A stretch of DNA of 64,000 nt from Promethearchaeota archaeon (GTDB lineage Archaea > Asgardarchaeota > Lokiarchaeia > Sigyniarchaeales > SOKP01). The notes under the pieces were generated by a model. The model was not told where the DNA came from. It ran no database searches and worked only from the letters and a program-made list of their open reading frames with translations. A program made the translations under genes and the position numbers. This document shows, one piece after another, positions 3,201-57,224 of this stretch. The stretch spans positions 656,785 to 720,784 of the forward strand of contig JBHLNF010000001.1 in the NCBI GenBank assembly GCA_048937405.1, read 5' to 3'. How positions within the stretch are numbered: position 1 is the first letter of the stretch; every line of letters starts with the position of its first letter.

Positions 3201-6200
3201 AACCAATAAGGTTGAATAACGTCTAAACTTAACATAGCTTCCAAAATTGGAGAATTTATAGGAATTGGGAAGCAAAACCAGAGGAAATAGCGATATTCTT
3301 TAATTAAAAAATAAAAAAATAAAATAGATACAGAAGAAAAAGTCGAAATTAATATCCCTGGTGACGCCTTGAAAATCAATGATACAAAAGAAGTAGCAGA
3401 TAATGAAGCTCCAATAATGATAATTAAATATTGAATTATGTTATTGATAGGTAGTCCCATTCTATATCGATTAAAAATGAAAAATGAGAAACCAATAACA
3501 GTTAACCAAAGAGAGGACGCTAATACAAAAAATCCAGTTATAAGATTGATCATATTGAATATTAACCAGGCTAAATTAAATATTAGTATCCATGAGAGGC
3601 TAAAATCTATAATTTTACTAACATATTTATTTGAAATCTTTATATATTTTGAGGAAAAAAGACTCAAACCTACAACAATAAAGCTGATGTTTATAGAAAA
3701 AATGAGATCTAAAATTAATAAATAAAGAATAGAAACGACTGTGAAAAAGATACCTAAAAGACTCACAATATATGCACATAATAAAATAAGTTCACGAGAT
3801 CTTATATTTGGAAAAAATGAATAGACAATTAACAAAAAGCCAATAACTAAAACATCAATTGAAATTGCAATTTCTAAATCAACACTAATAGATATTAAAT
3901 AAAAAAATAAAAAGAAACCATTAACAGCAGTTAACATAAGCCAAATTTTAGATACAATTTTCCAATATTTAACTCCTACGAACAATGGCATTAATAGGAT
4001 AACTGCAAATAAAAGAAAAGATAAATTTCTTAATAAGAGATTACTAATAAATAAATTTAGACTAATCCAATAGAGTAAGAATAGGCTTTCACCCCATATA
4101 ATAAATATAATTTGAAAAAAGTATTTCTTAATTTTTGTATACAGGACAGGTAAAAAAAATAAAGAACATATTATTATCGATATTATAAATGAACCTTTTA
4201 CTTGAAATACCCCAAATTGTAATGAATCAGTAAGTACATCAATTCCAGTAAAACTCTGATATATGATAAAGAAGTTTATAAAAGGTAGAATATTCCATAC
4301 ATACCATCCTGATTTCCAAATTGTCCATGAAATCCTCCAATGATATATTCCAATACAAAAATAAAAAAGAAAAACGCCAAAATCTATAGCGAATATTAAC
4401 GGAACTATAGATAATACGTGCATTGATAGAGAAGCAATGATTATAAAATATAAAAAAGTTGGAAAAGCTATAACTATAGAAGCAAGTATAGCAAAGAAAA
4501 ATTTATTTCTAAGCCTTTTTGGAGCATCATTATATAATAAAATTAATCCAAAATCTGATATACTTAGAGTGAGAGTGAAAGTTAAAATTGGATTGTAAGT
4601 ACCATAAATCTGATTATTAAAGAACCATGAGTATGATAAAAAGCTAATAAAGTCAAAGACAAATAAAATTACACAAGGTTTAATAAACCATTTATAACGT
4701 TCATCTTTTTGATGGTGAAAGTAAATTCCTGTAAAGAATAAGAATAAGAAAATTGAAATTGTTACGTTATAAATAGCTAAAATATTTGTAAAATTCATGA
4801 GAGAAATAAACGAGAGAATAGAAATTAACAAATATAATGAAAATTTTTCTTGGGTATTGTTTTTCTTAATATTTAGAGTAATAGAGAAAATTAAAACGGA
4901 AATTGTCGTTAAGAGATATAGATTGATGATTATACTTATGTTTGTTAAATTTAGCCCTATCACAACACCATAACTATCTAGAATTACTAGAATCGCAGCA
5001 AAAGTATAATAACTCAACAGAAAATATGATAAAAACCTAAAAATGGAGCTTATACTTCTCTTAGAAAGAATAAGCATATAAGATATTAATATAAGGAGAA
5101 TTGAAAGAGTACTATTAACATAAAGAAGGCTGAAAAATAAGATGATTGAAGTTAGATATAATCTGTAAATATTCAGTGAAGATGACTGTTCTATTACTTC
5201 ATTATATTTTATAGAAAAATAATATAAAATTAAAATCAGATTAACTGTGAGAGATATTATTTTCAAAAGTGAATTTTGATAGAACAATGGTATTGAATTT
5301 AATAAATTGAACAAAATTTCTATATAAATACCCAATAAAGAAAGGTTAAATACAATTTCAGTTATTTTTTTCAATAATAATTTATTTTTGGATGAAATTA
5401 ACCTCAGATTTTTTAGTATGTGAAGGCTTAATGGTGTAAGAATAGTAAATATTAATGATATAAGTAAAATTTTATTTACAATAAAAAATTGATAAGCAAA
5501 CACTTCAATTAGCATATAAATTAAAAAACATAATATTATCTTTATGATCATCCATGCAATTAATTCAGAAATAATTTTTACTTGAGTTAATTTCAGACTT
5601 ATTAAATTATCACTCACTATCAAAAGTAAAAGAAATAATGTGGTAAAAAAACCAATCAGAATAGTGGAATTGAATACTATTGAACTTAAAAAAAGATAAG
5701 ATAGAATATTTGTTGAAAGACTTAAAAATGTGAAAATGTATGATATTGAAATAATTATTCCATAAATTATGATATCTTGATACTTTTTCAAGGTTAAATA
5801 TTTTGGGTCATAGGAGGATGTTAATTTCAAGGTATAAATACTCAATAAAAAGAATAATAAGAAGCTACAACTTAACGTTAGAAAAACTACAGGAGTTAAT
5901 GTAAACCTATTAATAAAGGTCGAAGAAATATAATAAGAAAGAAGTAATGAAAATAGAAACCAGATAATTAGTTTAAGCAATTTGGAGTTTCTTATATATT
6001 TTTCTTTCAACTTAATTTTGATAGCGATAATCTCGAAAATATTAAGAAAAACAAATAGAATTAATAGTGTTAGAGTTATTATTGGAATAAAATTCGCTGC
6101 GAATCCAAATACTTCTATTCCAATGATAAATGGCAATGAAACAATTAAACATGATAATGCTGTAAAATTATAGATTGTTAATTGTCTTACTGATACTAGA

Positions 6201-9200
6201 TTGAAATATTCTTTTTTATAAGCATAATAGAAAATAAAAAACCAAGAGAAAAATAATGCAATAAAAGAAATAAGGATGTTATAAAAAATACCGCCTAACA
6301 ATAAAAATGGATAAAAAAATATTGTTGAAATCGAAATAAAAAATATGGTAATGAATTGTAATCTCCCTAAAATTAAAATAAATTTGCTGTTTAATTCTAA
6401 ATTTTTAGATAGATTACTGAGAATAAATAAAAAAGTAAAAAAAATGTAGAGGGAAAAGTTAATAATATTTATTGGTAAAAGCTTAGAATAAAATATCAAC
6501 CCTTTATTTATTAAATCTAAACTAATTATTAATGGAATTGAAGTAAGTAAACCTGTTAAAGCAATAGAAGTTAAAATTATTCCTAATTTAGCGAGTTTAA
6601 TATGAAACAACTGTTTCTTATAAGAGTAAAAAAGAGGTATGTAAAAGAAGCAGAACATAAAAATTAATGGTAATACAATACAATAAAAAGTCCCAGTTAA
6701 TAAAAAAAATGTATAATAGAAGACCGTCGTAATACCAATACTTAAAGTTAAAATTACATGTAATTTAAGAACCAGATTAACTCGATTTTCATCAGTCTTA
6801 ATTTTCTTCAATATGAAATAATAAATGTCAAGAAGAATAAATGCAATATACAGAGTAAAATTGATAACAGAAAATATTAAAAAAATTAAATCAAAATAAA
6901 ATCCTAAATTGAACAATTCCAAACCTATAATTGTGGGAATTAATGATATTGTAGCTGAAAATAGCAAACTGTTTACTTTTAATAATTTGGATGTAAAGTT
7001 TTTGAAAATCCCTTTCCTCCTCAAATATAGAATTGGAAAGTAAAAGGTTATGGTAAAGATCAGAAGAGGAATTATCAAAACATAAGTTGTATTAAAAGTT
7101 AGCAATAAAAAGAAATAAAAAGCTATAGGTGAACTATATAATAGAATAAATATGTTTATTCTAAAGATGAGATCTTCAGAAAAGAATTCTATTTTTGAAA
7201 ATAGATTGATTATTCCTCCAACAATTATTAATGAAAAATATAATGAATAGATTATATTTTCAACGAAGGATAAAGACTGAAAAATAATAAAAAAAATAGA
7301 GAAAAAGAAAGATAAAATCTCAGTACCAATTAAATATGAATTGATTTTATTGTTTCTCATAAATTTGGATTCATTTATTTTTTCTAAACTCATACCAAAT
7401 TTCAATATTATATAGTAGAAAATAGATGAAATTAAACAATCTAATATTAGAATGATGATATTTATATTAAGTAAGGAGATAATCAGTAAAGATATAAAAA
7501 AATTAACAAGAAATATCCAAAAAATAAAATAACTGAACATCAAGAAGTATTGTAATTTAAAGATATTTAGACTATAATTTAGAAAAAGAAAAATAGTGAA
7601 TACTATTGGAAATAAAATCATTGATATACAGATAGAATATAAAAAATTGACAAATTCAAATACCAGAAAATTCCTAAAATTAATGAAAATAAAAATAACA
7701 AATTCAATTAAAAAACTTATTATAACTGTATATATTCTGAAAGATTTAGGACTTTTAACGTAAAAATATCTAATCCCTAAAATGTATAGAGAAATTAGTA
7801 AAGTTACTAAAATGATAATGCAATGTAAGAGAATATTTGAAATTAGAATTATTAAGGGATCAGATGTAAAAGATGTATATTCGATAATAGCTATTGGAAA
7901 GAATGAGTATAATATTGGTATAAAACTTGCAATAGCCAGTAAATTTTGGTAAACAAGAATATCATCTTTATTAAAATATTCATATTTAACAAAAATTTGT
8001 AATACAAAATACAATGAAAGACAAAATATTAAGAAATTTAATAAAATTATCTCATGCATTAATGGTATTACCCCAAAAGCAACAGAAAACAAAATTGAAA
8101 TTGAATTTAACAACGCTATGTATCTGTTGTACTTTTTAGGACAGAGTTCTGATTTTTGTTCATAATAGACAAGAAAAAAAATAAATGGAAGTATAATTAA
8201 ATTTAAGAGAGGAACTTCAATTAAAAAAGAGAAAATAGTTATTAGTAAAATTAAAACAATAGATATATATGAATTATGTTTTTGATATCTGATATACTTT
8301 TGTATACCACTTTCTCTTGAATTTTCACCTTTTTTAGATATGTAGAATAGATTAAAAAGTTTCGAGTTATAATATACACTAACATAGAACCTAGATTTAA
8401 AAAAAAATAAGATAAAAATGAAAGTTAAAAAAGCATTACTTATTATTTCTAGGTTTGAGTACAATGTACCTCTGAGACTGAATATTAGAATATTAACAAA
8501 TGGCATTTGAATTAATAAGATAAAAAAAAGATTGACTATGAAAATTACAAATTGCTGTTTATAAGTAATCAGGTCCTTTAGAATTGGCTTATTCTCAACA
8601 ATCAGTTCTTTAATCTTATTAATTTGATTTTTAGTTGATGATAAAGTTAATATGTAGATAAGAATGTTTGTAATTAAACAAAAAAGCCAAGAAAATTCGG
8701 TAAATGTTGTAAAACTCAGAAATATAATATGAATGAAGTAATTGACGACAATGATAAAATTATCTGGTTGTTTAAGTGATGATTTAATATTTTTTGCATG
8801 TTTAAACTCCTTCTCCTCTAAATTAAAATAATCTAATGGTTGAAATTTATAATAATAATATACGATATTATAAAGAATTGTATAACTAACTAGAGGAAGT
8901 AAAGTAAAGTGAATATTTACAGGGGAAATTAAATAAAATATTGGTGTTATTAGCAAAGAAAAGATAGTAATCAAAAATAAACTATGAATTCTGGCGGGGG
9001 GGTTATTTTTTTTATTTAAAAAGAATGGTTTTCTTCTATATTTATCATATACTTTAAAAAAAAATAGGAGAGCATAAATAAAACTTAATACAGAAAATGA
9101 GAATGAAATGTAAAAATTTACTCCAGATTGAGTGAGGATCACAATTACTAAAAACGAAATAATCAACGGAGCAATAATTAAATAAAAACAAAACCACCAA

Positions 9201-9268
9201 GACTTTTGGAGAAATTCAGTGGCTTTTTTAATTTTTTCTTGTGAGTTATTACTATTTTCCGTTAACAT
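293..9268 (-). CDS. Giant polytopic membrane protein (2991 aa) with internal ~133-aa 4-TM repeats
   Basis: Uninterrupted 9 kb ORF of alternating hydrophobic helices and short Lys-rich loops along its whole length; no recognisable soluble domain. Confidence 0.85.
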   Translation of the reverse strand: MLTENSNNSQEKIKKATEFLQKSWWFCFYLIIAPLIISFLVIVILTQSGVNFYISFSFSVLSFIYALLFFFKVYDKYRRKPFFLNKKNNPPARIHSLFLITIFSLLITPIFYLISPVNIHFTLLPLVSYTILYNIVYYYYKFQPLDYFNLEEKEFKHAKNIKSSLKQPDNFIIVVNYFIHIIFLSFTTFTEFSWLFCLITNILIYILTLSSTKNQINKIKELIVENKPILKDLITYKQQFVIFIVNLFFILLIQMPFVNILIFSLRGTLYSNLEIISNAFLTFIFILFFFKSRFYVSVYYNSKLFNLFYISKKGENSRESGIQKYIRYQKHNSYISIVLILLITIFSFLIEVPLLNLIILPFIFFLVYYEQKSELCPKKYNRYIALLNSISILFSVAFGVIPLMHEIILLNFLIFCLSLYFVLQIFVKYEYFNKDDILVYQNLLAIASFIPILYSFFPIAIIEYTSFTSDPLIILISNILLHCIIILVTLLISLYILGIRYFYVKSPKSFRIYTVIISFLIEFVIFIFINFRNFLVFEFVNFLYSICISMILFPIVFTIFLFLNYSLNIFKLQYFLMFSYFIFWIFLVNFFISLLIISLLNINIIILILDCLISSIFYYIILKFGMSLEKINESKFMRNNKINSYLIGTEILSFFFSIFFIIFQSLSFVENIIYSLYFSLIIVGGIINLFSKIEFFSEDLIFRINIFILLYSSPIAFYFFLLLTFNTTYVLIIPLLIFTITFYFPILYLRRKGIFKNFTSKLLKVNSLLFSATISLIPTIIGLELFNLGFYFDLIFLIFSVINFTLYIAFILLDIYYFILKKIKTDENRVNLVLKLHVILTLSIGITTVFYYTFFLLTGTFYCIVLPLIFMFCFFYIPLFYSYKKQLFHIKLAKLGIILTSIALTGLLTSIPLIISLDLINKGLIFYSKLLPINIINFSLYIFFTFLFILSNLSKNLELNSKFILILGRLQFITIFFISISTIFFYPFLLLGGIFYNILISFIALFFSWFFIFYYAYKKEYFNLVSVRQLTIYNFTALSCLIVSLPFIIGIEVFGFAANFIPIITLTLLILFVFLNIFEIIAIKIKLKEKYIRNSKLLKLIIWFLFSLLLSYYISSTFINRFTLTPVVFLTLSCSFLLFFLLSIYTLKLTSSYDPKYLTLKKYQDIIIYGIIISISYIFTFLSLSTNILSYLFLSSIVFNSTILIGFFTTLFLLLLIVSDNLISLKLTQVKIISELIAWMIIKIILCFLIYMLIEVFAYQFFIVNKILLISLIFTILTPLSLHILKNLRLISSKNKLLLKKITEIVFNLSLLGIYIEILFNLLNSIPLFYQNSLLKIISLTVNLILILYYFSIKYNEVIEQSSSLNIYRLYLTSIILFFSLLYVNSTLSILLILISYMLILSKRSISSIFRFLSYFLLSYYTFAAILVILDSYGVVIGLNLTNISIIINLYLLTTISVLIFSITLNIKKNNTQEKFSLYLLISILSFISLMNFTNILAIYNVTISIFLFLFFTGIYFHHQKDERYKWFIKPCVILFVFDFISFLSYSWFFNNQIYGTYNPILTFTLTLSISDFGLILLYNDAPKRLRNKFFFAILASIVIAFPTFLYFIIIASLSMHVLSIVPLIFAIDFGVFLFYFCIGIYHWRISWTIWKSGWYVWNILPFINFFIIYQSFTGIDVLTDSLQFGVFQVKGSFIISIIICSLFFLPVLYTKIKKYFFQIIFIIWGESLFLLYWISLNLFISNLLLRNLSFLLFAVILLMPLFVGVKYWKIVSKIWLMLTAVNGFFLFFYLISISVDLEIAISIDVLVIGFLLIVYSFFPNIRSRELILLCAYIVSLLGIFFTVVSILYLLILDLIFSINISFIVVGLSLFSSKYIKISNKYVSKIIDFSLSWILIFNLAWLIFNMINLITGFFVLASSLWLTVIGFSFFIFNRYRMGLPINNIIQYLIIIIGASLSATSFVSLIFKASPGILISTFSSVSILFFYFLIKEYRYFLWFCFPIPINSPILEAMLSLDVIQPYWLLTWSMLYLIVFQIIINIFKKSVQQETQEIKQESQEIENSIFRIYKNKIQLRWFNFICFLLNSICISLFIGIILPNLMKQLLFTQILIIYQLCDFLIIWSVLFLFCMKYIEKSDLNVNFKEYTLFFNKISYILYLLIPLASGFNLLLYLFFINWEIRFIIFSFLILFSGILFIEGFILDNYYFKFMFKSTRNWFNLWSWLIFCNTLAVLLFLLYLNLFLLMLTISLLNLISVKLSSHLDKYHSIRSSTRLILIYNSFIWSSFYLSSLISGGLLLLFEEIRGFLEYSLLIQNAFLFLYFLSYFLIKFEKTLKNRVEFILFIVFQGLSGINLAYIFHILNYLNFLIVNIIIFLQICLTFNTIKIYNKILPEQKYPNFLEKMHSNLFLALYLEISLITYGLSIKYLGLFESILSSLLILFILTILDIYSIKKIIKFYARFVHSISFIVISIMLLIILNQYISLYSILLSLEFLIFLIMQFYSNFSLFKSLEMLSPQKIDTFRRYKSSIQHILGAFFYFLLSIIILQLLIIQRINFQIILLVISCIIHVLMIIDKKLLKFLGRSVTYFELLSWGLIMAFSLFYLIWFYNTFFIEIFYTVIPLVIIVFIIEFTYLLRLISSWHAIVLHKEQIKLNLIIVSYINFITWPLYFISFNFNMNLNLILIAVLILLLITLFDSFLEEKLRKILKSSAFLTSGALLSVDLYLLLEYFSGYNHLLNINITFLIFMIFLIIIVKPFKKHSILALTFWLVIFFLLSSIIYQLSLSSIFSIIIFVIMLLIYPFIFLLEQLKEIFSWIVDTISKIFRLLKTIIKNVLLKISYFIKIHYRAIWTIINIIASIFFGILFSDVIFGLLNPIHATLLIFPIFGLLYSFMPSKKSDDPDIKFRRRMIRLIISWSSVIIVLFAFITPIWYIFTIWISIWIVGAILLPYMIFKEKKENISIKWRFYTLIFLIILLIFFGIIFVIQISGAFIF

Positions 9269-9420
9269 CGCCCATTATAAATTGAGGTTTACTTTGAAAA
9301 TAATGAAATTTTATATTTATAAATATATCAGAGCATTGGTTATTAATGTAAAGGGGTAATTAACAAAATTCTAACATTAATTCTATTAAATAAATTATTG
9401 AAACGATGAAAAGCTAATAT

Positions 9421-10755
9421 TTATTTAAAATTTGGTAAAAAGCTTTTTTGTAGTTCAAACAACTCATTAAAAATAGATTCTGCTTTTTTAAAACTTCCTA
9501 CGTTAGGATCGATTGCTAATGATGCAATTGCAATCTCCTTAGATTCTTTTAGAACAGCCTCGACGCAAAGATCTTGTATTGAAGCTTCAATACGAAGTAA
9601 TGCTGCTATATTTTTTGGTAGATTAATAGAGTTAACTCCATGCACACCGTTTTTATTGACTACCGCAGAACATTCTAAGATAAGGTCTTGAGGTAAATTC
9701 TTCACTATATTATTATTTGGGATATTTACAGCAACCTCATAAGAATTCTCATCATTTATTATTGCTTCGATTATCGGGATTGCTCTTTCTATTGAAACTT
9801 CTTCGTATAATATTCCCTTCTTAGGATATTTACCTTTTTTAAGTCTTTTATGATAATTAAGAAACTTATTATAAAAAAATTGTCCTTCTTTATCAATAAA
9901 ATCAATCCAATCAATCATATCCTGTGTCTCAGTAAATTCCTCACCAAATTGTAAGTATTCTCCTATATGGTTATCCCCTACGTATGGAAAATAACCAAAT
10001 CTCTTAAAAATTTCAAATGTTAAAGTTGAAAATTCAAATCGATCATCATGTTCTTTAAAATAGTCCATAGCAATTGAATTAAAAGATGGTAATAAATCTT
10101 TTCCAGTAGATAAATCTTCGATTCCCATTAAAAATGCAAAATGATTTAATCCAGCAACATTCATTTTTAACTCATCTATCGGTTTTTTAAATATCCTTGG
10201 TAAATGTTTTACCATAAATGAAATTTGATGACATAGTCCAATGAATTTTAGATTTTTTACACTCCTCTTAATTGCTAAACATACTCTTGACATTGGATTT
10301 GAGAAGTTAATGAAAAAAGCATTTGGACATAGTTCCTCCACATCTTTCACAATCTCAATAATAGGGGGAATTATTCTCCAAGCATGAAAAGTACCACCTG
10401 GTCCACCACATTCTCCTAAAATCTGCTTAGAACCATAATTTCTAGGTATTTCATAATCTTGGCGCCATAATTTCATTCTATCTCCTACTTCTATTGAATT
10501 AATAATGAAATCTGCCCCTCTTAGTGCTTTCTTCCTATCAGTCGTCTGTTCAAGAATGAATTTGTTTTCTCGCCTCTCATTTTCAACCATTAAGAGATCA
10601 TATACAATTTCCAACTTTTTTTTATTTATATCATGAAGAACTATTATTGAATCTTCCAAAACCTTACTTAAATAGATATCATTAAACATAGGTAAACCAA
10701 AAGAGGTCGAACCTGCTCCGATTAAAACAATTTTCCTATTCATTTTATTTTCCAA
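9421..10755 (-). CDS. Glycoside hydrolase family 4 (NAD+/Mn2+-dependent alpha-galactosidase/alpha-glucosidase)
   Basis: KIVLIGAGS Rossmann motif, GECGGPGG, NFSNP, GLCH and GLNH GH4 motifs. Confidence 0.9.
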   Translation of the reverse strand: MENKMNRKIVLIGAGSTSFGLPMFNDIYLSKVLEDSIIVLHDINKKKLEIVYDLLMVENERRENKFILEQTTDRKKALRGADFIINSIEVGDRMKLWRQDYEIPRNYGSKQILGECGGPGGTFHAWRIIPPIIEIVKDVEELCPNAFFINFSNPMSRVCLAIKRSVKNLKFIGLCHQISFMVKHLPRIFKKPIDELKMNVAGLNHFAFLMGIEDLSTGKDLLPSFNSIAMDYFKEHDDRFEFSTLTFEIFKRFGYFPYVGDNHIGEYLQFGEEFTETQDMIDWIDFIDKEGQFFYNKFLNYHKRLKKGKYPKKGILYEEVSIERAIPIIEAIINDENSYEVAVNIPNNNIVKNLPQDLILECSAVVNKNGVHGVNSINLPKNIAALLRIEASIQDLCVEAVLKESKEIAIASLAIDPNVGSFKKAESIFNELFELQKSFLPNFK

Positions 10756-50562: not shown

Positions 50563-51306
50563 ACGTTATTCCAAGCGGAAATAGCACGATTTATACTAAT
50601 TTACATTTTCTTAGGTATTTTAGCAGTTTATTTCTCAATAATTGCCTTTAAAGTCTTAAAGAGAAAAAAACAACGTTTAAATCTAATTATTAGTGGATTT
50701 TATATCAGTCTCTCCACAGGTTTTTATTTAAACATGGTCTATGCCACGATAACTGAACCAATTACTATTTTAATACTTAATTTTTTAACTAATTTCTTTA
50801 TTTTTTTTGGCACAATATTTCTTCTTATCGCAAATTTGATAATACTGGAATCGACTCTTATTTATTCAATAAAAAGACAAAATAAGTTTATTTTATTCTA
50901 TGGAATCTTACTTTTCACAGGTATGTTATTATTAGTAATATTAGGAATATTCTTTGATAATCCAAGTAGTCCGTTTTTAGGAGTCAAAATAATTGGTGTT
51001 GTTCCAAAATGGGGTCCTATTTTTTTTACCTATATAATTTCGATAGTGACTGTTTTTACCCTTATTCCAATAAATTATACGAATTTTAAAATCTTTTTTC
51101 GATTTGAAACTATTGCTTTGAAAAGAAAATGGTTTTATCACTTAGTAGGCTTTTTAGGGATAACAGTGATTTTTTATTTATCGTGCATTTTTAATATTTT
51201 GGATCCTGGACATCCTTTAAAATTGATAATTATATTATTGCATATGTCATTAATAATCTGGGGTTATTTGATGTATTATGGAATTGGAATTAAATTTAAA
51301 GATTGA
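50563..51306 (+). CDS. 7TM membrane protein, paralog of 53288-54007; true start appears to be ACG at 50563
   Basis: The frame is open 57 codons upstream of ATG 50734 and aligns with the paralog N-terminus (ARF..Y..G...KVLKR...RLNLIISGFY). GGTGA SD lies 6 nt before ACG, with an in-frame stop just upstream. Confidence 0.75.
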   Translation, partial: TLFQAEIARFILIYIFLGILAVYFSIIAFKVLKRKKQRLNLIISGFYISLSTGFYLNMVYATITEPITILILNFLTNFFIFFGTIFLLIANLIILESTLIYSIKRQNKFILFYGILLFTGMLLLVILGIFFDNPSSPFLGVKIIGVVPKWGPIFFTYIISIVTVFTLIPINYTNFKIFFRFETIALKRKWFYHLVGFLGITVIFYLSCIFNILDPGHPLKLIIILLHMSLIIWGYLMYYGIGIKFKD

Positions 51307-52613: not shown

Positions 52614-53069
52614 TTAAGCAAGTAAAGATATAACCCTTTCTTCAAAAGTCAACGTACTTACATCAAATAACTTATTAAGTGTAGTTTTAAAACTTTCAAA
52701 TTGATTTGATTTAGTAAAATTGCATCCATTAAATTGAGAAATGAATTTTTTTAATACTTTCTCTAATAAAGGAAAAATTGTTTTTCTCAAAAATTTTTCA
52801 AGTCTTTCATCCCTATCTATAACTATAAAAGCCACGATCTCTTGATCAAATTGGAAACAATCTTTCACTATTCCTTTCTTAAAAATTATTGAGAATTTTT
52901 CACTCTCAAAATATTCTACGGGTTCCATTAAACATTCTGCAAAACTAAGAAGTCCACTCATAAGTCCACTTGAACAAACTAGATTTAAATTATCCTTACT
53001 AGCCCTATGATAACTAGAAAATATAATTGGAATTCCTTGAAAGAGTATACCTGCTTCTCTAATCAACAT
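52614..53069 (-). CDS. Stand-alone longin-like domain protein
   Basis: beta-beta-alpha(SGLMSGLLSFA)-beta3-alpha-alpha pattern ending F..F...L, typical of Asgard longins. Confidence 0.7.
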   Translation of the reverse strand: MLIREAGILFQGIPIIFSSYHRASKDNLNLVCSSGLMSGLLSFAECLMEPVEYFESEKFSIIFKKGIVKDCFQFDQEIVAFIVIDRDERLEKFLRKTIFPLLEKVLKKFISQFNGCNFTKSNQFESFKTTLNKLFDVSTLTFEERVISLLA

Positions 53070-53173
53070 GGGAAATATTAAGATAAATTAACTAATAAAG
53101 TGATAAAAACATATTCTAAATAGACGACAATAATTTACGACAAAAAAATAGTATTTAAATGTATTCTTTTTTA

Positions 53174-53196
53174 GTGATATTCCGTCGCAATATCAC
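53174..53196. other. Perfect 8-bp inverted repeat with 7-nt GC-rich loop
   Basis: GTGATATT-ccgtcgc-AATATCAC. Confidence 0.6.
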
Positions 53197-53287
53197 AAAT
53201 AGTAGTGAATCTAAAAATTAAGGGAATCATTCAATAAAATCGAGTAAGTGTACTCCCCATTACCATTTTTTTATTTGATAAATTTAT

Positions 53288-54007
53288 TCACTCCAATTGA
53301 CGCCCTACACCGATATACATTAAATAAGCCCCAGAAATAATCAGAATCAAATCTGCTATTCCTATTACAGCTCTAAAAATAGGGACATCTAAAAAATTAG
53401 AAATAAATATACTATATCCGCATATATAAAAAGCTCCTAATCCGATTATAAAACATTTCCATTTTTTTTTCAATTGGAAATCTTCAAACTTCTTAAATAT
53501 TTTATATGAGCTGTAAAAGGATGGTACTACTACGTATACAGTTACAATAGACACAAAAAAAAGAAAAAAAGGCAACATCCAATGAGGTGTCCAATTTGGA
53601 GGGCCAATTTCTACACCCCAATTTTCTATTAAGAGGAAAATCCACATAAAAGAAAGAACAACAGCATATCCTACTAATATAGCAAGTTGCTTTTTAGTAT
53701 TAATAACTCTTTCTGGTTTTAGCAACATTAGTTCAAATACTAAAATAAAAATTGGTGAATAAAATGCAAAAAATGTCGTTATTCCATGCATGATAAGGAC
53801 AATATTTACATCTGTTATCGGAGCGTAGATAAAATTTACACCAAATCCGATAACATTACCTAGGTAGAATCCGGTGAATATTAAGTTCAATCGTTTTGTA
53901 TCGCGTTTAAGAATTTTATAGATTAAAAAAATGAAGTAGAAAAACATTACTCCTTGGGCAATATATACTGTAAAAAATCTAGGTATACTCAGTTGATAAA
54001 ACGACAT
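53288..54007 (-). CDS. Stand-alone 7TM membrane protein (receptor/sensor-like)
   Basis: Seven hydrophobic segments; KILKR..RLN, PxW and LKKKW motifs shared with 50563-51306. Confidence 0.75.
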   Translation of the reverse strand: MSFYQLSIPRFFTVYIAQGVMFFYFIFLIYKILKRDTKRLNLIFTGFYLGNVIGFGVNFIYAPITDVNIVLIMHGITTFFAFYSPIFILVFELMLLKPERVINTKKQLAILVGYAVVLSFMWIFLLIENWGVEIGPPNWTPHWMLPFFLFFVSIVTVYVVVPSFYSSYKIFKKFEDFQLKKKWKCFIIGLGAFYICGYSIFISNFLDVPIFRAVIGIADLILIISGAYLMYIGVGRQLE

Positions 54008-54313
54008 TTTAAGATACCATCATCATATTACCAATTTTGAAAAAAATTATACTTAATAATACTATTGTCTTTGATGTTCTATTTATTATTGTGGTTTTTA
54101 GTAGTGATCTCTAAACAATCATATAATTTAAAAAATGTATTATAGGATTATAAGTAATCAAAAATTTATCTTAAATTGATATTTGATTACTAACAGATAA
54201 TTTTTCTAATTCTTTCATCTAATTTATTGAATCTTTTTTTCATTTTTTAATTGATAAATACAGAAATACAATTAGAAATATGATATATGAGAATTAATCC
54301 TTCATATCAATAT

Positions 54314-55432
54314 TTATGCTGCAAAAATCTCTTCTATAATGTTTTTTATTGGATAAAATATGGTAAGATCTCCAGTCCAATTATTTAGGATACTACTATA
54401 AACTTCCTCAATCTTTATTATTAATTTCCTAAGATTGTGAATAAAAAATTTCAATTCTTCCTTACAAATTAATACTCCAGTTATATAATCACCAGAAAAA
54501 AGAATCAAAATTTTGTTATATTTTTTTATAATAGAAATTTCACTAGATTTACCTTCAATTAGTTCATTAAGCATTATATTCATTGAAGCCAATGTTCCTG
54601 AGACAAATTGATTTTCTAAAATCTTAGTCTTGCTTGAGAAGGAATAAGCAAATAAACAAATCCCTGTATTGTTTAATATATAAATATCTTCAATTTTATC
54701 TTGCCAGTCAAATTCAAAGAACGGAGGGATTTTTCTGAAAAAAATGAAAATTAGGGCAATGGCTATTAGTTGAAGAGTAATTCCAACAAATCTTATTATG
54801 AGTCCAAAAACTTGAAGAATTAAATCCATCGAAAAAACATATCCAATTAAAATAAGTAATATGATTATTGTCCCTTTTAAGAAACTTTTTGATAAAATTT
54901 CTTGTTTTGCTGATTTTCTACCAAGATCTTTTACATAAAGCAAAAATAAGAAAGTGAATAAAGGCCATGATACAACTGAAAGTGAATGAATAAATAATAA
55001 ATCAATGAAAAATAGAATGGAAAATAAAAATAATAAGATAATAAAAGTTAGTGTGAAAAAATACTTCTTAAAAAAGAATTTTTTATTTTTCTCTATAAAA
55101 TATGAAAACAATAAAATACCTATCATTAGTGAAAAAAAACCAAAATTATAAAAAAGTTGTCTGTAATTCCCCTCTGACCAAATTAAAAAAGGAGAAATTC
55201 TATTATTAGATAAATAGTAGCTAGAAATTATAGATAAAATTTTTAATACTGAAAATCCAAAAAATAATGATGCAAATCCTAAATCTTGTGAGTTTTTAAT
55301 ACTTATCGCTTGTTTTCTATATTTAATTAAAAAGATTATTCCAAGTTCAAGAGCAAAAAAGGCAAAAATCGATTCCATTATTAAAAGTGTAAATCTAAAC
55401 GAGGTTGTTATTGGAAATTCGATATACATCAA
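54314..55432 (-). CDS. 7TM + C-terminal longin-like domain fusion protein
   Basis: Seven TM segments, linker PPFFEFDW, then IYILNNTGICLFAYSF...FVSGTL...WTGDLTIF. Confidence 0.75.
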   Translation of the reverse strand: MMYIEFPITTSFRFTLLIMESIFAFFALELGIIFLIKYRKQAISIKNSQDLGFASLFFGFSVLKILSIISSYYLSNNRISPFLIWSEGNYRQLFYNFGFFSLMIGILLFSYFIEKNKKFFFKKYFFTLTFIILLFLFSILFFIDLLFIHSLSVVSWPLFTFLFLLYVKDLGRKSAKQEILSKSFLKGTIIILLILIGYVFSMDLILQVFGLIIRFVGITLQLIAIALIFIFFRKIPPFFEFDWQDKIEDIYILNNTGICLFAYSFSSKTKILENQFVSGTLASMNIMLNELIEGKSSEISIIKKYNKILILFSGDYITGVLICKEELKFFIHNLRKLIIKIEEVYSSILNNWTGDLTIFYPIKNIIEEIFAA

Positions 55433-55438
55433 CTTTTT

Positions 55439-56587
55439 TTACATCTGTAGTATTTGATTCATAATATTATCAAAACTGCTAAATAATTGTGAATATTCTT
55501 CTGAAAAGTTATTTAAATTTAATAGAATTTCTCTAAAAAATAATTCAAACCTACCTTTTATAGATTTTAAAAGATGAGGAGTGCTAATTAAATGAACTTT
55601 AACAATTAAGACAAATGTTAAGTAGAATGGATATTGACTATCCTCTAGGAAAATATGATAATCACCTTTTTCAATTTCATTTAAACCTTTACCTTTAGTA
55701 TTTGTAATTATTCCTATAATGGATTCAATCCCTAAAATTCCTTTAGAAAATAGATTTTCAAACTGTTTGAGATGATTTTGATTCTGAGCATTTTTATCCT
55801 TAAATTTTTCAATGAAATCATAACTATAAATGCAACTTTTGTTTTGTTGGTTAATTATAAATAATTTAATGAGGTTTTTCCTCCATTCAAATTCATAAAA
55901 AGGAGGAAAATTAATTACGGAAAATGATATAATAATGAATCCAATTATTAACACACAAATACCAGTGTAATAAATTATTTCATTTAAAATTGGGGGTAAA
56001 ACACCTAATCCAACAAAAATAGCGAAGGTTAAAGCAACTAAACTTATTAATGTACCATATAAAAATAATTCGAATTTTTTTTTTATATTTCCTACAACCT
56101 TTCTTATCATAATCATTTGAAATCTTACTAAGTACAAACCATTTAATACAATAAAAATAATACTGCTTATAAATAAGGGTGAGAGTAAATTTGGCACAAT
56201 AAATAAAACCACTACAGGAATAATAGTAAAGATTAGTAAAATTTTAGCGATTTTAATATTTATAACACTTGAAAACTCTTTAGCAATTATGATGGAAGAA
56301 AAACATATTGTTGAAAAAAAACCAAAAAACCAACCTATTCTCGTAATTATTACATGAATTATTTCATTTTCAATAAAATTCCTTGCTATATGTATCAATA
56401 ACGTACCTAATATTAAAAAAAATATAAATGAACCAAATGCTAATAAAATTCTATTTAATGGAAGATTTTTATCTCTTGTTTTTTGATATTGGAAAAATAA
56501 ATAAATTGTTAATTGAAATCCCATCATGATAGGTAACAAAAAAGCTATAAATTGCAGTTCTTTATTAATTTCAATTTGAGAAAGCAT
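55439..56587 (-). CDS. 7TM + C-terminal longin-like domain fusion protein
   Basis: Seven TM segments, linker PPFYEFEW, then LFIIN...CIYSYDF...LFSKGILGIESII...FSSFDNIM. Confidence 0.75.
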   Translation of the reverse strand: MLSQIEINKELQFIAFLLPIMMGFQLTIYLFFQYQKTRDKNLPLNRILLAFGSFIFFLILGTLLIHIARNFIENEIIHVIITRIGWFFGFFSTICFSSIIIAKEFSSVINIKIAKILLIFTIIPVVVLFIVPNLLSPLFISSIIFIVLNGLYLVRFQMIMIRKVVGNIKKKFELFLYGTLISLVALTFAIFVGLGVLPPILNEIIYYTGICVLIIGFIIISFSVINFPPFYEFEWRKNLIKLFIINQQNKSCIYSYDFIEKFKDKNAQNQNHLKQFENLFSKGILGIESIIGIITNTKGKGLNEIEKGDYHIFLEDSQYPFYLTFVLIVKVHLISTPHLLKSIKGRFELFFREILLNLNNFSEEYSQLFSSFDNIMNQILQM

Positions 56588-56690
56588 TTTTATATAATAA
56601 AAAAAAATATATAGATTCTGAATTTTCTGATGTTTTTTGCTTTAAATGATTAAATTCAATATTAAATATTTAACTGGAGTATTTAACCAT

Positions 56691-57224
56691 TTATATTATC
56701 ATTTTATCTGTTAAAATTTTTCTCAATAAAGTCTCAAATACTAATTCCACATTTTCCCCAGTTTTGGATGAGCAATCAATATAATCAAATAAATTGTATC
56801 GTTGAGCGATTTTATCTCCCTCTTTCCGCGAAAAATTAATCTGATCTTTAAGATCAGACTTACCTCCAACCAGTAAAACTGGGATATCTATTTTTTCAGT
56901 GGTCTGCTCCTTTCTAAAGGTATCTACCCAAGCTTCTACGTTCTCTAAGGTCTCATATCTGGAAAGATCAAACATAAAAATACCTCCAGAAGATCCTCTT
57001 GAGTATAAAGGCAATAGAAAAGTAAATATACGCTCCCCTCCAAAATCCCACACTTGTAGTACAATTTTTATATCATCAATTTGCATAAATTTAACAAATA
57101 TCTCTGCTCCCATAGTGATCTGAATGTTTTCTTCAAAATATCCTTTGAGAAATCTTCGAGCTAATGTAGTTTTACCTACACAGGTTTCTCCAAAAATACA
57201 AATTTTATAAGCTAACTCTCCCAT
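56691..57224 (-). CDS. Rab-like small GTPase
   Basis: G1 GETCVGKT, switch I TMGAEIF, G3 WDFGGE, LYSRGS, G4 GKSD, G5 SSKTGENV; no C-terminal prenylation cysteines. Confidence 0.93.
   Translation of the reverse strand: MGELAYKICIFGETCVGKTTLARRFLKGYFEENIQITMGAEIFVKFMQIDDIKIVLQVWDFGGERIFTFLLPLYSRGSSGGIFMFDLSRYETLENVEAWVDTFRKEQTTEKIDIPVLLVGGKSDLKDQINFSRKEGDKIAQRYNLFDYIDCSSKTGENVELVFETLLRKILTDKMII

Follow-up and report, generated by a model that had tools for sequence, protein, structure and literature searches.

The gene cluster described here belongs to an Asgard archaeon and places the gene of a Rab-like small GTPase before two tandem genes for polytopic membrane proteins with predicted C-terminal longin domains. 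It lies in a window of 64,000 nucleotides (the whole stretch of DNA that was analysed) from a Promethearchaeota archaeon of the lineage Lokiarchaeia, Sigyniarchaeales, SOKP01 (GenBank assembly GCA_048937405.1, contig JBHLNF010000001.1, positions 656,785 to 720,784 of the forward strand). In this AT-rich window (G+C about 23-31%), five co-directional open reading frames (ORFs), named G1 to G5, occupy positions 52614-57224 of the minus strand: G1 is the GTPase, G2 and G3 are fusions of a seven-transmembrane (7TM) domain, a short linker and a longin-like domain, G4 is a stand-alone 7TM protein and G5 a stand-alone longin (Table 1). G2 and G3 are also referred to as the A and B subunits, and their families as the A and B families. 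The genes are separated by 103 bp (G1-G2), 6 bp (G2-G3), 306 bp (G3-G4) and 218 bp (G4-G5). An original prediction, made from the letters of the window by a model, had listed these five co-directional genes with spacings of 103 bp between GTPase and first fusion and 6 bp between the fusions, seven transmembrane (TM) segments, a shared linker and a longin-like C-terminal domain in each fusion, a stand-alone 7TM protein and a stand-alone longin downstream, and a Rab-like GTPase without lipidation signal. Strand, positions and both spacings were measured as described, and the domain assignments are borne out by the analyses given below; its proposals that the GTPase is linked to the fusions and that all five genes form one module are treated separately. 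Homologues of the locus proteins are labelled Promethearchaeota or Lokiarchaeota, and scans with Pfam and NCBIfam models gave no above-threshold match for any of G2 to G5.

The two fusions are paralogues, with 26% identity over 232 residues (E 5e-8). An AlphaFold2 (AF2) model of G3, built from 39 sequences (predicted local distance difference test, pLDDT, 79; predicted template modelling score, pTM, 0.71), contains seven TM helices at residues 11-40, 48-70, 90-116, 125-143, 148-176, 183-209 and 211-234, and seven segments are also given by hydropathy for G2 and for G4. Across the family, the mean numbers of lysine plus arginine in loops 1, 3, 5 and 7 are 4.0, 4.3, 4.1 and 2.3, compared with 0.6, 1.3, 0.2 and 1.0 in loops 0, 2, 4 and 6, a positive-inside pattern which argues that the N-terminus is outside and the longin cytoplasmic. 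Between both domains lies the linker PPF[YF]EF[ED]W, present as FPPFYEFEW in G2 and as IPPFFEFDW in G3, which is the most conserved motif of the A and B families alike: in the A family F227, P228, P229, Y231, E232, F233 and E234 are invariant and W235 nearly so, and in the B family the invariant positions are E240 and W243, with P237 close to invariant. The motif is absent from the other TM-longin proteins of the host genome and is thus specific to the A and B families. A second conserved element, SPFLIW, forms an outer loop in the 7TM domain of G3. The Atlas model for G2 matches 7TM-longin clusters at template modelling scores of 0.71-0.76. For the TM part of G3, the nearest fold match is the adhesion G-protein-coupled receptor (GPCR) ADGRL3 (Z 13.3, root-mean-square deviation (rmsd) 4.4, 209 amino acids (aa)); since helical models reach Z of about 13-14 in the comparison program VIA-align by arrangement alone, without kinship, this resemblance is taken as one of topology only. 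No Pfam or NCBIfam family matched the 7TM parts of A and B, and no transporter or channel family was detected, the fold search included. A hydrolase of the CREST type was also considered for the 7TM part, given matches to ACER3 (Z 11.8) and AdipoR2 (Z 10.2), and was rejected, as neither family has an invariant histidine in its TM part.

According to the structural models, the C-terminal domains of the fusions and G5 have the longin fold. In the AF2 model of G3, the domain consists of strands 247-254 and 259-264, helix 274-291, strands 299-304, 307-313 and 317-323, and helices 328-350 and 362-371. The resulting order, beta-beta-alpha-beta-beta-beta-alpha-alpha without an N-terminal helix, is shared by residues 247-371 of G3 and residues 3-139 of G5, whose own AF2 model has longin topology at pLDDT 80. 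VIA-align was used to compare the G3 model with 48,161 chains. The matches of the G3 longin span residues 241/246-372 and include CPLANE 7q3d_C (Z 12.3, rmsd 3.1, 122 aa), synbindin/TRAPPC4 (Z 11.9), Sec22 (Z 11.7), the solved Lokiarchaeal longin 8yqg (Z 11.4), the TRAPP core (Z 11.3), Mon1-Ccz1 with Ypt7 (Z 10.5) and SRX-SRbeta structures (Z 10.2-10.7), and Roadblock proteins follow at Z 9.5-9.8 with fewer residues covered. For G5, Trs23 (3cue_A) was matched at Z 13.3 (rmsd 2.6, 127 aa), compared with Z 8-8.7 for Roadblocks. The longin fold expected by the original prediction was therefore recovered with VIA-align at Z 10-13; Foldseek alone was indecisive, as the full G3 model found nothing in the PDB at E 1e-3 or better and gave a mixed list of longin and Roadblock chains at 4e-3 and weaker. 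Sequence comparison points to the same fold with lower sensitivity. No longin model of Pfam was matched by G2, G3 or G5 in single-sequence searches; among 38 family members, 19 matched Sybindin below threshold (best 0.0037) and four did so with Fuz_longin_1 (best 5e-4), and a weak PDB profile match leads to Trs23 (0.085). The G2 longin aligns with that of G3 and was found by a longin profile search of the genome at 1e-9. G5 gave no BLASTP match to G3, their kinship being seen with profiles only (hhalign probability 74.5%, E 2.7e-5, G5 against the fusion longins). A Roadblock/LC7/MglB identity was considered and rejected, as the models start with two strands and end with two helices and the Roadblock matches are shorter and reach Z 8.0-9.8; the Roadblock/LC7/MglB COG label that some homologues carry (JGI) is right at the superfamily level only.

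Judged by its motifs, G1 is an atypical switch of the Rab-like kind. It matches Pfam Ras at 9.5e-37, its closest solved relatives by sequence are the Thorarchaeota Rab 7ezb (1e-30) and then Ypt6/Rab6, and Rabs make up all 60 of its top 60 PDB sequence matches. Canonical elements are kept in the P-loop (GETCVGKT), in the switch I threonine (T37) and in the G5 motif (CSSK). In switch II, the sequence WDFGGE carries a glutamate where Rabs have the catalytic glutamine, the G4 motif GGKSD has glycine in place of the asparagine of NKxD, and the C-terminus (...TDKMII) lacks a cysteine or prenylation motif. These deviations are family traits: among 120 homologues of G1, 101 contain DFGGE, most have a GGKxD-type G4 motif and 117 lack a cysteine in the last six residues, and the atypical motifs are also kept in the orthologues that adjoin A-B pairs. 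A large Asgard Rab-like clade shares WDFGGE together with GGKxD, and in the host genome glutamate occupies the position of the catalytic glutamine in 12 of the 73 small GTPases matched by a G1-family profile. At two loci (L001:4190-4722 and L050) the GTPase was called as a protein of 140 aa that seemed to have no P-loop. Loss of the P-loop was rejected, because it is present in frame upstream (...IIGELAYK...) with no ATG, GTG or TTG start, and a non-canonical start codon is likely from the sequence.

The fusions belong to a large family without a name in Pfam, NCBIfam or the Atlas, in which unnamed clusters of the same shape occur in Promethearchaeota and Thorarchaeota. With a B-type longin profile, 1458 clusters (50% identity) were recovered from 1.84 billion representatives at an E cut-off of 1e-3, and 402 pass a cut-off of 1e-10; the dominant form is a protein of 355-375 aa with its longin at about 225-370. 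Gene order was compared in a sample of 54 loci from assemblies and metagenomes, which group into 27 clusters when their A proteins are clustered at 80% identity. Wherever such a locus has downstream sequence, B follows directly after A at a distance of -8 to +88 bp, and stop and start overlap in many cases. This universal adjacency is strong evidence for a stoichiometric A-B pair and supports the pairing of the two fusions that had been claimed from the sequence. A different arrangement, A-B-B', is found in one lineage, at L019:5871-9266 and L020:1242-4637, where B is duplicated in tandem and no GTPase lies nearby. One contig with the GTPase-A-B genes (L018, DATKTW010000108.1) is filed under a metagenome-assembled genome of 'Candidatus Nanopelagicaceae bacterium' (Actinomycetota); its A protein is identical to that of Promethearchaeota-type loci, and the contig is probably mis-binned.

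The claimed link between GTPase and fusions stands in part. A small GTPase gene lies directly upstream of A (at most 134 bp away, same strand) in 10 of 25 informative clusters, an enrichment over a roughly estimated background of 2.7% (in the host genome, a GTPase domain is encoded by 108 of about 3955 ORFs), yet the adjacency is not universal, as it is missing from the other 15; since related loci are not independent, it is given without a p-value. In a maximum-likelihood tree of the A protein, the GTPase-linked loci are one clade of 18 rows (16 linked, support 99/95) and two outlying loci, L063 and L081, the sister of the latter (L076) having a GTPase 1.3 kb upstream. GTPase linkage thus occupies at least three separate tree positions and needs at least four state changes. 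The GTPases at L063 and L081 are other paralogues, with WDLGGQ and NKLD or TKLD as opposed to WDFGGE and GGKxD, which implies that the association is either ancient, with replacement of the GTPase, or was gained repeatedly. In one clade (L016, at 3499-5064 and 8308-9861; L017, L018, L051-L054 and L059), the trio of GTPase, A and B is flanked on both sides by paralogous proteins of about 520 aa, 49% identical to each other, with a central Ras domain (Pfam 4e-43 and 5e-48) and a C-terminus of about 190 aa. Their N-terminal region appears Roadblock-like by eye only; the A2 and A5 longin profiles gave nothing significant for these proteins, and no Roadblock model was run.

To predict a complex of the two longins with the GTPase, the G2 longin (residues 228-382) and the G3 longin were combined with G1, which served as scored partner, and every chain had its own alignment. 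The complex reached a score of 0.85 (0.85, 0.86 and 0.85 in separate runs), against 0.31 for the best control, a mark attained by 58 of 80 solved complexes and by 2 of 110 mismatched pairs. Contacts agreed between runs to at least 89%, with a partner pLDDT of at least 83. In the prediction, switch I and switch II of the GTPase dock on the helix-1 face of both longins. The predicted interface is formed in G1 by residues 2-7, 27-44 (switch I and interswitch), 55-59, 66-78 (switch II), 174 and 176; in G2 by residue 250 and helix 1 (275-293); and in G3 by the beta1-beta2 loop (255-259), helix 1 (272-290) and the W352-x-G354 loop (353-357). It includes the conserved residues G257, L288 and G354 of G3 and G283 and G286 of G2. 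When an unrelated protein took the place of G2, the score fell to 0.31, which indicates that both longins contribute. A GTPase interface of the kind foreseen by the original prediction was thus obtained in silico. A role as an asparagine 'thumb' had been considered for the nearly invariant N285 of G3 and was dropped, as this residue is outside the predicted contacts.

The remaining genes show that the locus is made of two abutting modules, G1-G2-G3 on the one side and, on the other, G0 and G4, a GNAT-like gene and G5. G0 is a paralogue of G4 (33% identity, E 3e-21), and G4 is one of a 7TM family with four members in the host genome. The GNAT-like protein shows sub-threshold matches to Pfam Acetyltransf_7 and Acetyltransf_10 at about 3e-3, a PDB sequence match to an aminoglycoside acetyltransferase at 0.014 and Atlas feature matches to GNAT clusters at 0.96. 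It had been claimed that the five co-directional genes form a single module, and this claim is contradicted by gene order: in 19 loci of the same genus the convergent GNAT-like gene adjoins G5 in nearly all cases, whatever lies upstream of G5 (G4 in about six, B in one, unrelated genes in the others), and the G4 family pairs with the GNAT-like gene. At L001, two pairs of a TM gene followed by a GNAT-like gene are present and G5 follows B directly, with no G4; at L091, L094 and L103, G4-type TM, GNAT-like and G5-type genes occur together in several arrangements. It is accordingly very doubtful that all five genes constitute one receptor-type regulatory module for nucleotide exchange, with G4 and G5 as a split third 7TM-longin unit. 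Such a module would fit the co-directional order of the five genes in the host genome and in the related locus L013, the recurrence in the host genome of several pairs of a TM gene of about 240 aa followed by a longin gene of about 130-150 aa, and those loci of the same genus in which G4 or B stands directly upstream of G5. It is opposed by the constant GNAT-like neighbour and variable upstream gene of the G5 orthologues, by trios without G4 (L001, L050), by the lack of G5 beside A-B at L014-L018 and L051-L059 and in most GTPase-linked lineages, and by gaps of 306 and 218 bp compared with 6 bp between A and B. G4 therefore probably belongs to the neighbouring module and not to the GTPase trio. 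The second module looks like the same 7TM and longin parts in split form, together with an acetyltransferase-like enzyme. However, G4 gave no BLASTP match to G3, and jackhmmer with the 7TM domain of G3 recovered no paralogue in the host genome, not even G2, so that homology between the stand-alone 7TM proteins and the 7TM halves of the fusions cannot be asserted.

Genes of the second type recur more widely. The combination of a 7TM protein of the G0/G4 family, a GNAT-like protein of about 365 aa and a longin of about 151 aa is found across the genus and family (L031-L049, L091, L094, L102, L103). Distant G5-type longins (about 35% identity; L092, L093, L095, L096-L101), which occur in nearly all genomes of the archaeal family, are convergent to a conserved run of three genes (about 340, 300 and 316 aa) in place of the GNAT-like gene. 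Upstream of the locus, the window contains acetyl-CoA synthase genes (CdhC and the epsilon subunit), which have no relation to the finding. Elsewhere in the host genome, two further tandem pairs and two single genes encode polytopic TM proteins with a C-terminal longin (Table 1).

Table 1. Genes, domains and spacer of the locus (window coordinates) and further TM-longin fusions of the same genome (coordinates with C numbers).
Feature	Position	Strand	Basis or remark
G1, Rab-like small GTPase, 177 aa	56691-57224	-	Pfam Ras 9.5e-37; conserved motifs
G1-G2 spacer, 103 bp	56588-56690	-	AT-rich; T9 run, TATATA-like stretch
G2 (A subunit), 382 aa	55439-56587	-	7TM, linker and predicted longin
G2 7TM domain, aa 1-226	55910-56587	-	Seven segments by hydropathy; family alignment
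G2 linker FPPFYEFEW, aa 227-235	55883-55909	-	Invariant across A family
G2 C-terminal longin (predicted), aa 236-382	55442-55882	-	Aligns with G3 longin; profile match 1e-9
G3 (B subunit), 372 aa	54314-55432	-	7TM, linker and predicted longin
G3 7TM domain, aa 1-234	54731-55432	-	AF2 helices; N-out/C-in; conserved outer loop SPFLIW
G3 linker including IPPFFEFDW, aa 235-246	54695-54730	-	Conserved columns
G3 C-terminal longin (predicted), aa 247-372	54317-54694	-	AF2 topology; VIA-align matches
G4, stand-alone 7TM protein, 239 aa	53288-54007	-	Hydropathy; G0 paralogue
G5, stand-alone longin (predicted), 151 aa	52614-53069	-	AF2 topology; VIA-align matches
GNAT-like protein, 364 aa	51467-52561	+	Weak acetyltransferase matches; synteny
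G0, G4 paralogue, 190 aa as called	50734-51306	+	Directly upstream of GNAT-like gene
Tandem pair, 7TM, 365 + 381 aa	C17:216726-219165		Host genome
Tandem pair, about 11 TM, 556 + 553 aa	C13:284002-287518		Host genome
Single TM-longin fusion, about 12 TM, 739 aa	C28:298820-301039		Host genome
Single TM-longin fusion, 7TM, 438 aa	C20:20884-22200		Host genome

On balance, a little better than an even chance is given to the reading in which A and B form a longin heterodimer embedded in the membrane, which binds the neighbouring GTPase and regulates it, or recruits it. G2 and G3 would then be two paralogous subunits of one membrane complex, each made of a 7TM domain with N-terminus outside and C-terminus inside, the rigidly conserved PPFxEFxW linker and a cytoplasmic longin. 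The two longins would associate as a heterodimeric platform, and the surface formed by switch I, interswitch and switch II of G1 would dock on its helix-1 face. Since G1 has no lipid anchor, this docking would both bring the GTPase to the membrane and serve to read or set the state of its nucleotide. By analogy, the most likely role would be that of a receptor which acts in the manner of guanine-nucleotide exchange factors (GEFs) or is selective for a nucleotide state; it is favoured by the resemblance to the heterodimeric longins of TRAPP and Mon1-Ccz1 and by the lack of a conserved arginine finger. In the ranking adopted here, a GEF-like or state-selective membrane receptor appears preferable to an effector, and an effector to a GTPase-activating protein (GAP). 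The 7TM halves would serve at least as the anchor and, in view of the conserved outer loop, may sense something outside the cell. The stronger proposal that A-B is a transmembrane receptor, whose SPFLIW outer face senses a ligand or partner cell while the linker relays the signal and the longins exchange the nucleotide on G1, is considered unlikely.

Several observations weigh against a heterodimer that regulates or recruits the adjacent GTPase. Fifteen of the 25 informative lineages have no adjacent GTPase, the two other tandem TM-longin pairs of the host genome both lack one, as do its two single fusions, and close homologues of G1 (53-61% identical) occur in unrelated gene contexts. The 103-bp spacer could house its own promoter or terminator, so that G1 may be transcribed apart from G2-G3. 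The high complex score may reflect the memory of the model for solved longin-GTPase complexes; it covers G1 against the pair, not the A-B interface, and was obtained with user-made alignments and a three-chain set-up unlike the calibration. The complex model is also nucleotide-free and thus silent on state selectivity. The change from glutamine to glutamate in switch II could equally fit a GAP-dependent or a hydrolysis-poor switch, and the present data do not separate a GEF from a GAP, an anchor or effector binding.

Other explanations were weighed as well. If A-B were independent of GTPases, the longins would only dimerise or bind a ligand within a 7TM sensor or enzyme, and the GTPase adjacency would be lineage-specific and secondary. 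The lineages and host-genome pairs without an adjacent GTPase are consistent with this, as is the breadth of the longin superfamily, which has many non-GTPase roles (PMC4917890). The explanation is nevertheless judged improbable, as the adjacency recurs, with different GTPase paralogues, at no fewer than three positions of the tree, A-B is surrounded by three GTPase genes in one clade, and the complex model passes its controls; moreover, with around 100 GTPases per genome, a partner may be encoded elsewhere. Alternatively, A-B could be the effector, namely a transporter, channel or receptor that is switched by a GTP-bound GTPase on its longins, like SRX with SR-beta-GTP. The predicted contacts involve switch I and II, which is where effectors read a GTPase, SRX-SRbeta is among the fold matches, and conserved polar residues in the 7TM part together with the outer loop suggest more than anchoring. 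Against an effector stand the lack of any detected transporter or channel family, the best longin matches, which are of the GEF type and not SRX, and the nucleotide-free model, which offers nothing on state selectivity; there seems to be only a small chance that it is correct. The longin pair might also be a GAP, either MglB-like or folliculin/GATOR1-like, which compensates for the missing catalytic glutamine. The glutamate at this position in G1 and in most of its homologues fits partner-dependent hydrolysis, and MglB and longin GAP complexes share the platform geometry (PMC10933270, PMC12290439). Folliculin-type GAP longins (FLCN, NPRL2, SMCR8), however, carry an arginine finger and a GP motif around the beta1-loop-beta2 region (PMC12290439), and the invariant and nearly invariant columns of the two longin families contain neither an arginine nor a GP motif; the corresponding beta1-beta2 region reads IYILNNTGICLF in G3 and LFIINQQNKSCIY in G2. 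A folliculin-type GAP mechanism is therefore not supported and, with L063 and L081 combining A-B with GTPases that keep the glutamine, a GAP role in general appears highly unlikely.

Asgard longins, Roadblocks, Rab-like GTPases and fusions of longin or Roadblock domains with GTPases have already been described (PMC10933270; bioRxiv 10.1101/2020.10.19.343400). In Asgard genomes, small GTPases number about a hundred and longin/Roadblock proteins dozens. Dey et al. (2016) asked whether operons could reveal the targets of these GTPases (PMC4917890), and Tran et al. (2024) reported that the GTPase genes of MK-D1 generally lie outside operons with Roadblock or longin genes (PMC10933270), which makes the matching of GTPases and regulators difficult. 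A literature search, with subscription papers and the supplementary asCOG tables mostly outside its scope, found no mention of a polytopic-membrane longin fusion or of the GTPase-A-B trio. The new aspect proposed here is a longin platform for a small GTPase that is both paired and integral to the membrane. The trio addresses two questions, namely how lipid-free GTPases reach the membrane and which regulator serves which GTPase, and it provides a specific, conserved and experimentally tractable match of one GTPase with one candidate integral-membrane longin heterodimer, with soluble parts of a size that permits binding and exchange to be assayed. Provided that the pairing is real, it would represent a route of membrane recruitment that predates prenylation, and longin platforms would already have been coupled to membranes in archaea. 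Should A-B even be a receptor with GEF activity, archaea would have in it a counterpart to the logic of GPCRs, assembled from parts of the trafficking machinery, and it might be a forerunner of the eukaryotic GEF systems that define membrane identity.

Among known systems, the closest likeness is to the eukaryotic longin GEF platforms. The TRAPP core Bet5-Trs23 (TRAPPC1-TRAPPC4), Mon1-Ccz1, CPLANE and BLOC-3 all combine two different longin subunits, as A-B would; in TRAPP and Mon1-Ccz1 the switch face of a Rab-like client lies on the helix-1 face of the pair, an arrangement that for A-B is predicted only. TRAPP, Mon1-Ccz1 and CPLANE also give the best structural matches of the A-B-type longins and G5 (Z 10-13.3), along with the weak Sybindin and Fuz_longin_1 signals. 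The eukaryotic longin GEFs are soluble or peripheral proteins with prenylated Rabs as clients, whereas each longin of A-B is fused to a 7TM domain and thus integral to the membrane; in addition, the A-B locus contains no partner of the TRAPPC3/Bet3 type. Among prokaryotes, MglA-MglB of Myxococcus and Thermus likewise places a small GTPase gene beside that of a platform regulator with the same overall docking geometry (PMC10933270), but the Roadblock protein MglB is soluble, homodimeric and equipped with an N-terminal helix, and A-B consists of two membrane-embedded paralogues of longin topology. In Ragulator-Rag (LAMTOR), a GTPase is held at a membrane by a platform from the Roadblock/longin superfamily, as proposed for A-B; unlike A-B, this platform is anchored through lipidated LAMTOR1 and contacts the Rags at their Roadblock domains instead of the switch face. 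An Asgard operon of a LAMTOR1-like Roadblock, a Rab-like GTPase and a DENN protein has been described (bioRxiv 10.1101/2020.10.19.343400), and it differs from the trio in having DENN and no 7TM fusion.

Further parallels are found where longins or GTPases meet membranes. In the pair of SR-alpha SRX and SR-beta, the switch region of a small GTPase is bound at the membrane by a longin-like domain, as in the A-B model, but with reversed roles, since there the TM anchor belongs to the GTPase and the longin-like partner is a soluble protein. The longin SNAREs (VAMP7, Sec22, Ykt6) also have a longin on a membrane-anchored protein and match structurally at Z 11-13; their longin is N-terminal and followed by the SNARE helix and a single C-terminal anchor, whereas in A-B the 7TM domain comes first, the longin last and a coiled coil is absent. 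Finally, A-B resembles GPCRs in its seven helices, in its N-out/C-in orientation and in a coupling to GTPases that would run through the fused domain. In GPCRs, the helix bundle itself touches a heterotrimeric G protein; in A-B, a monomeric Rab-like GTPase would be touched by the longin platform.

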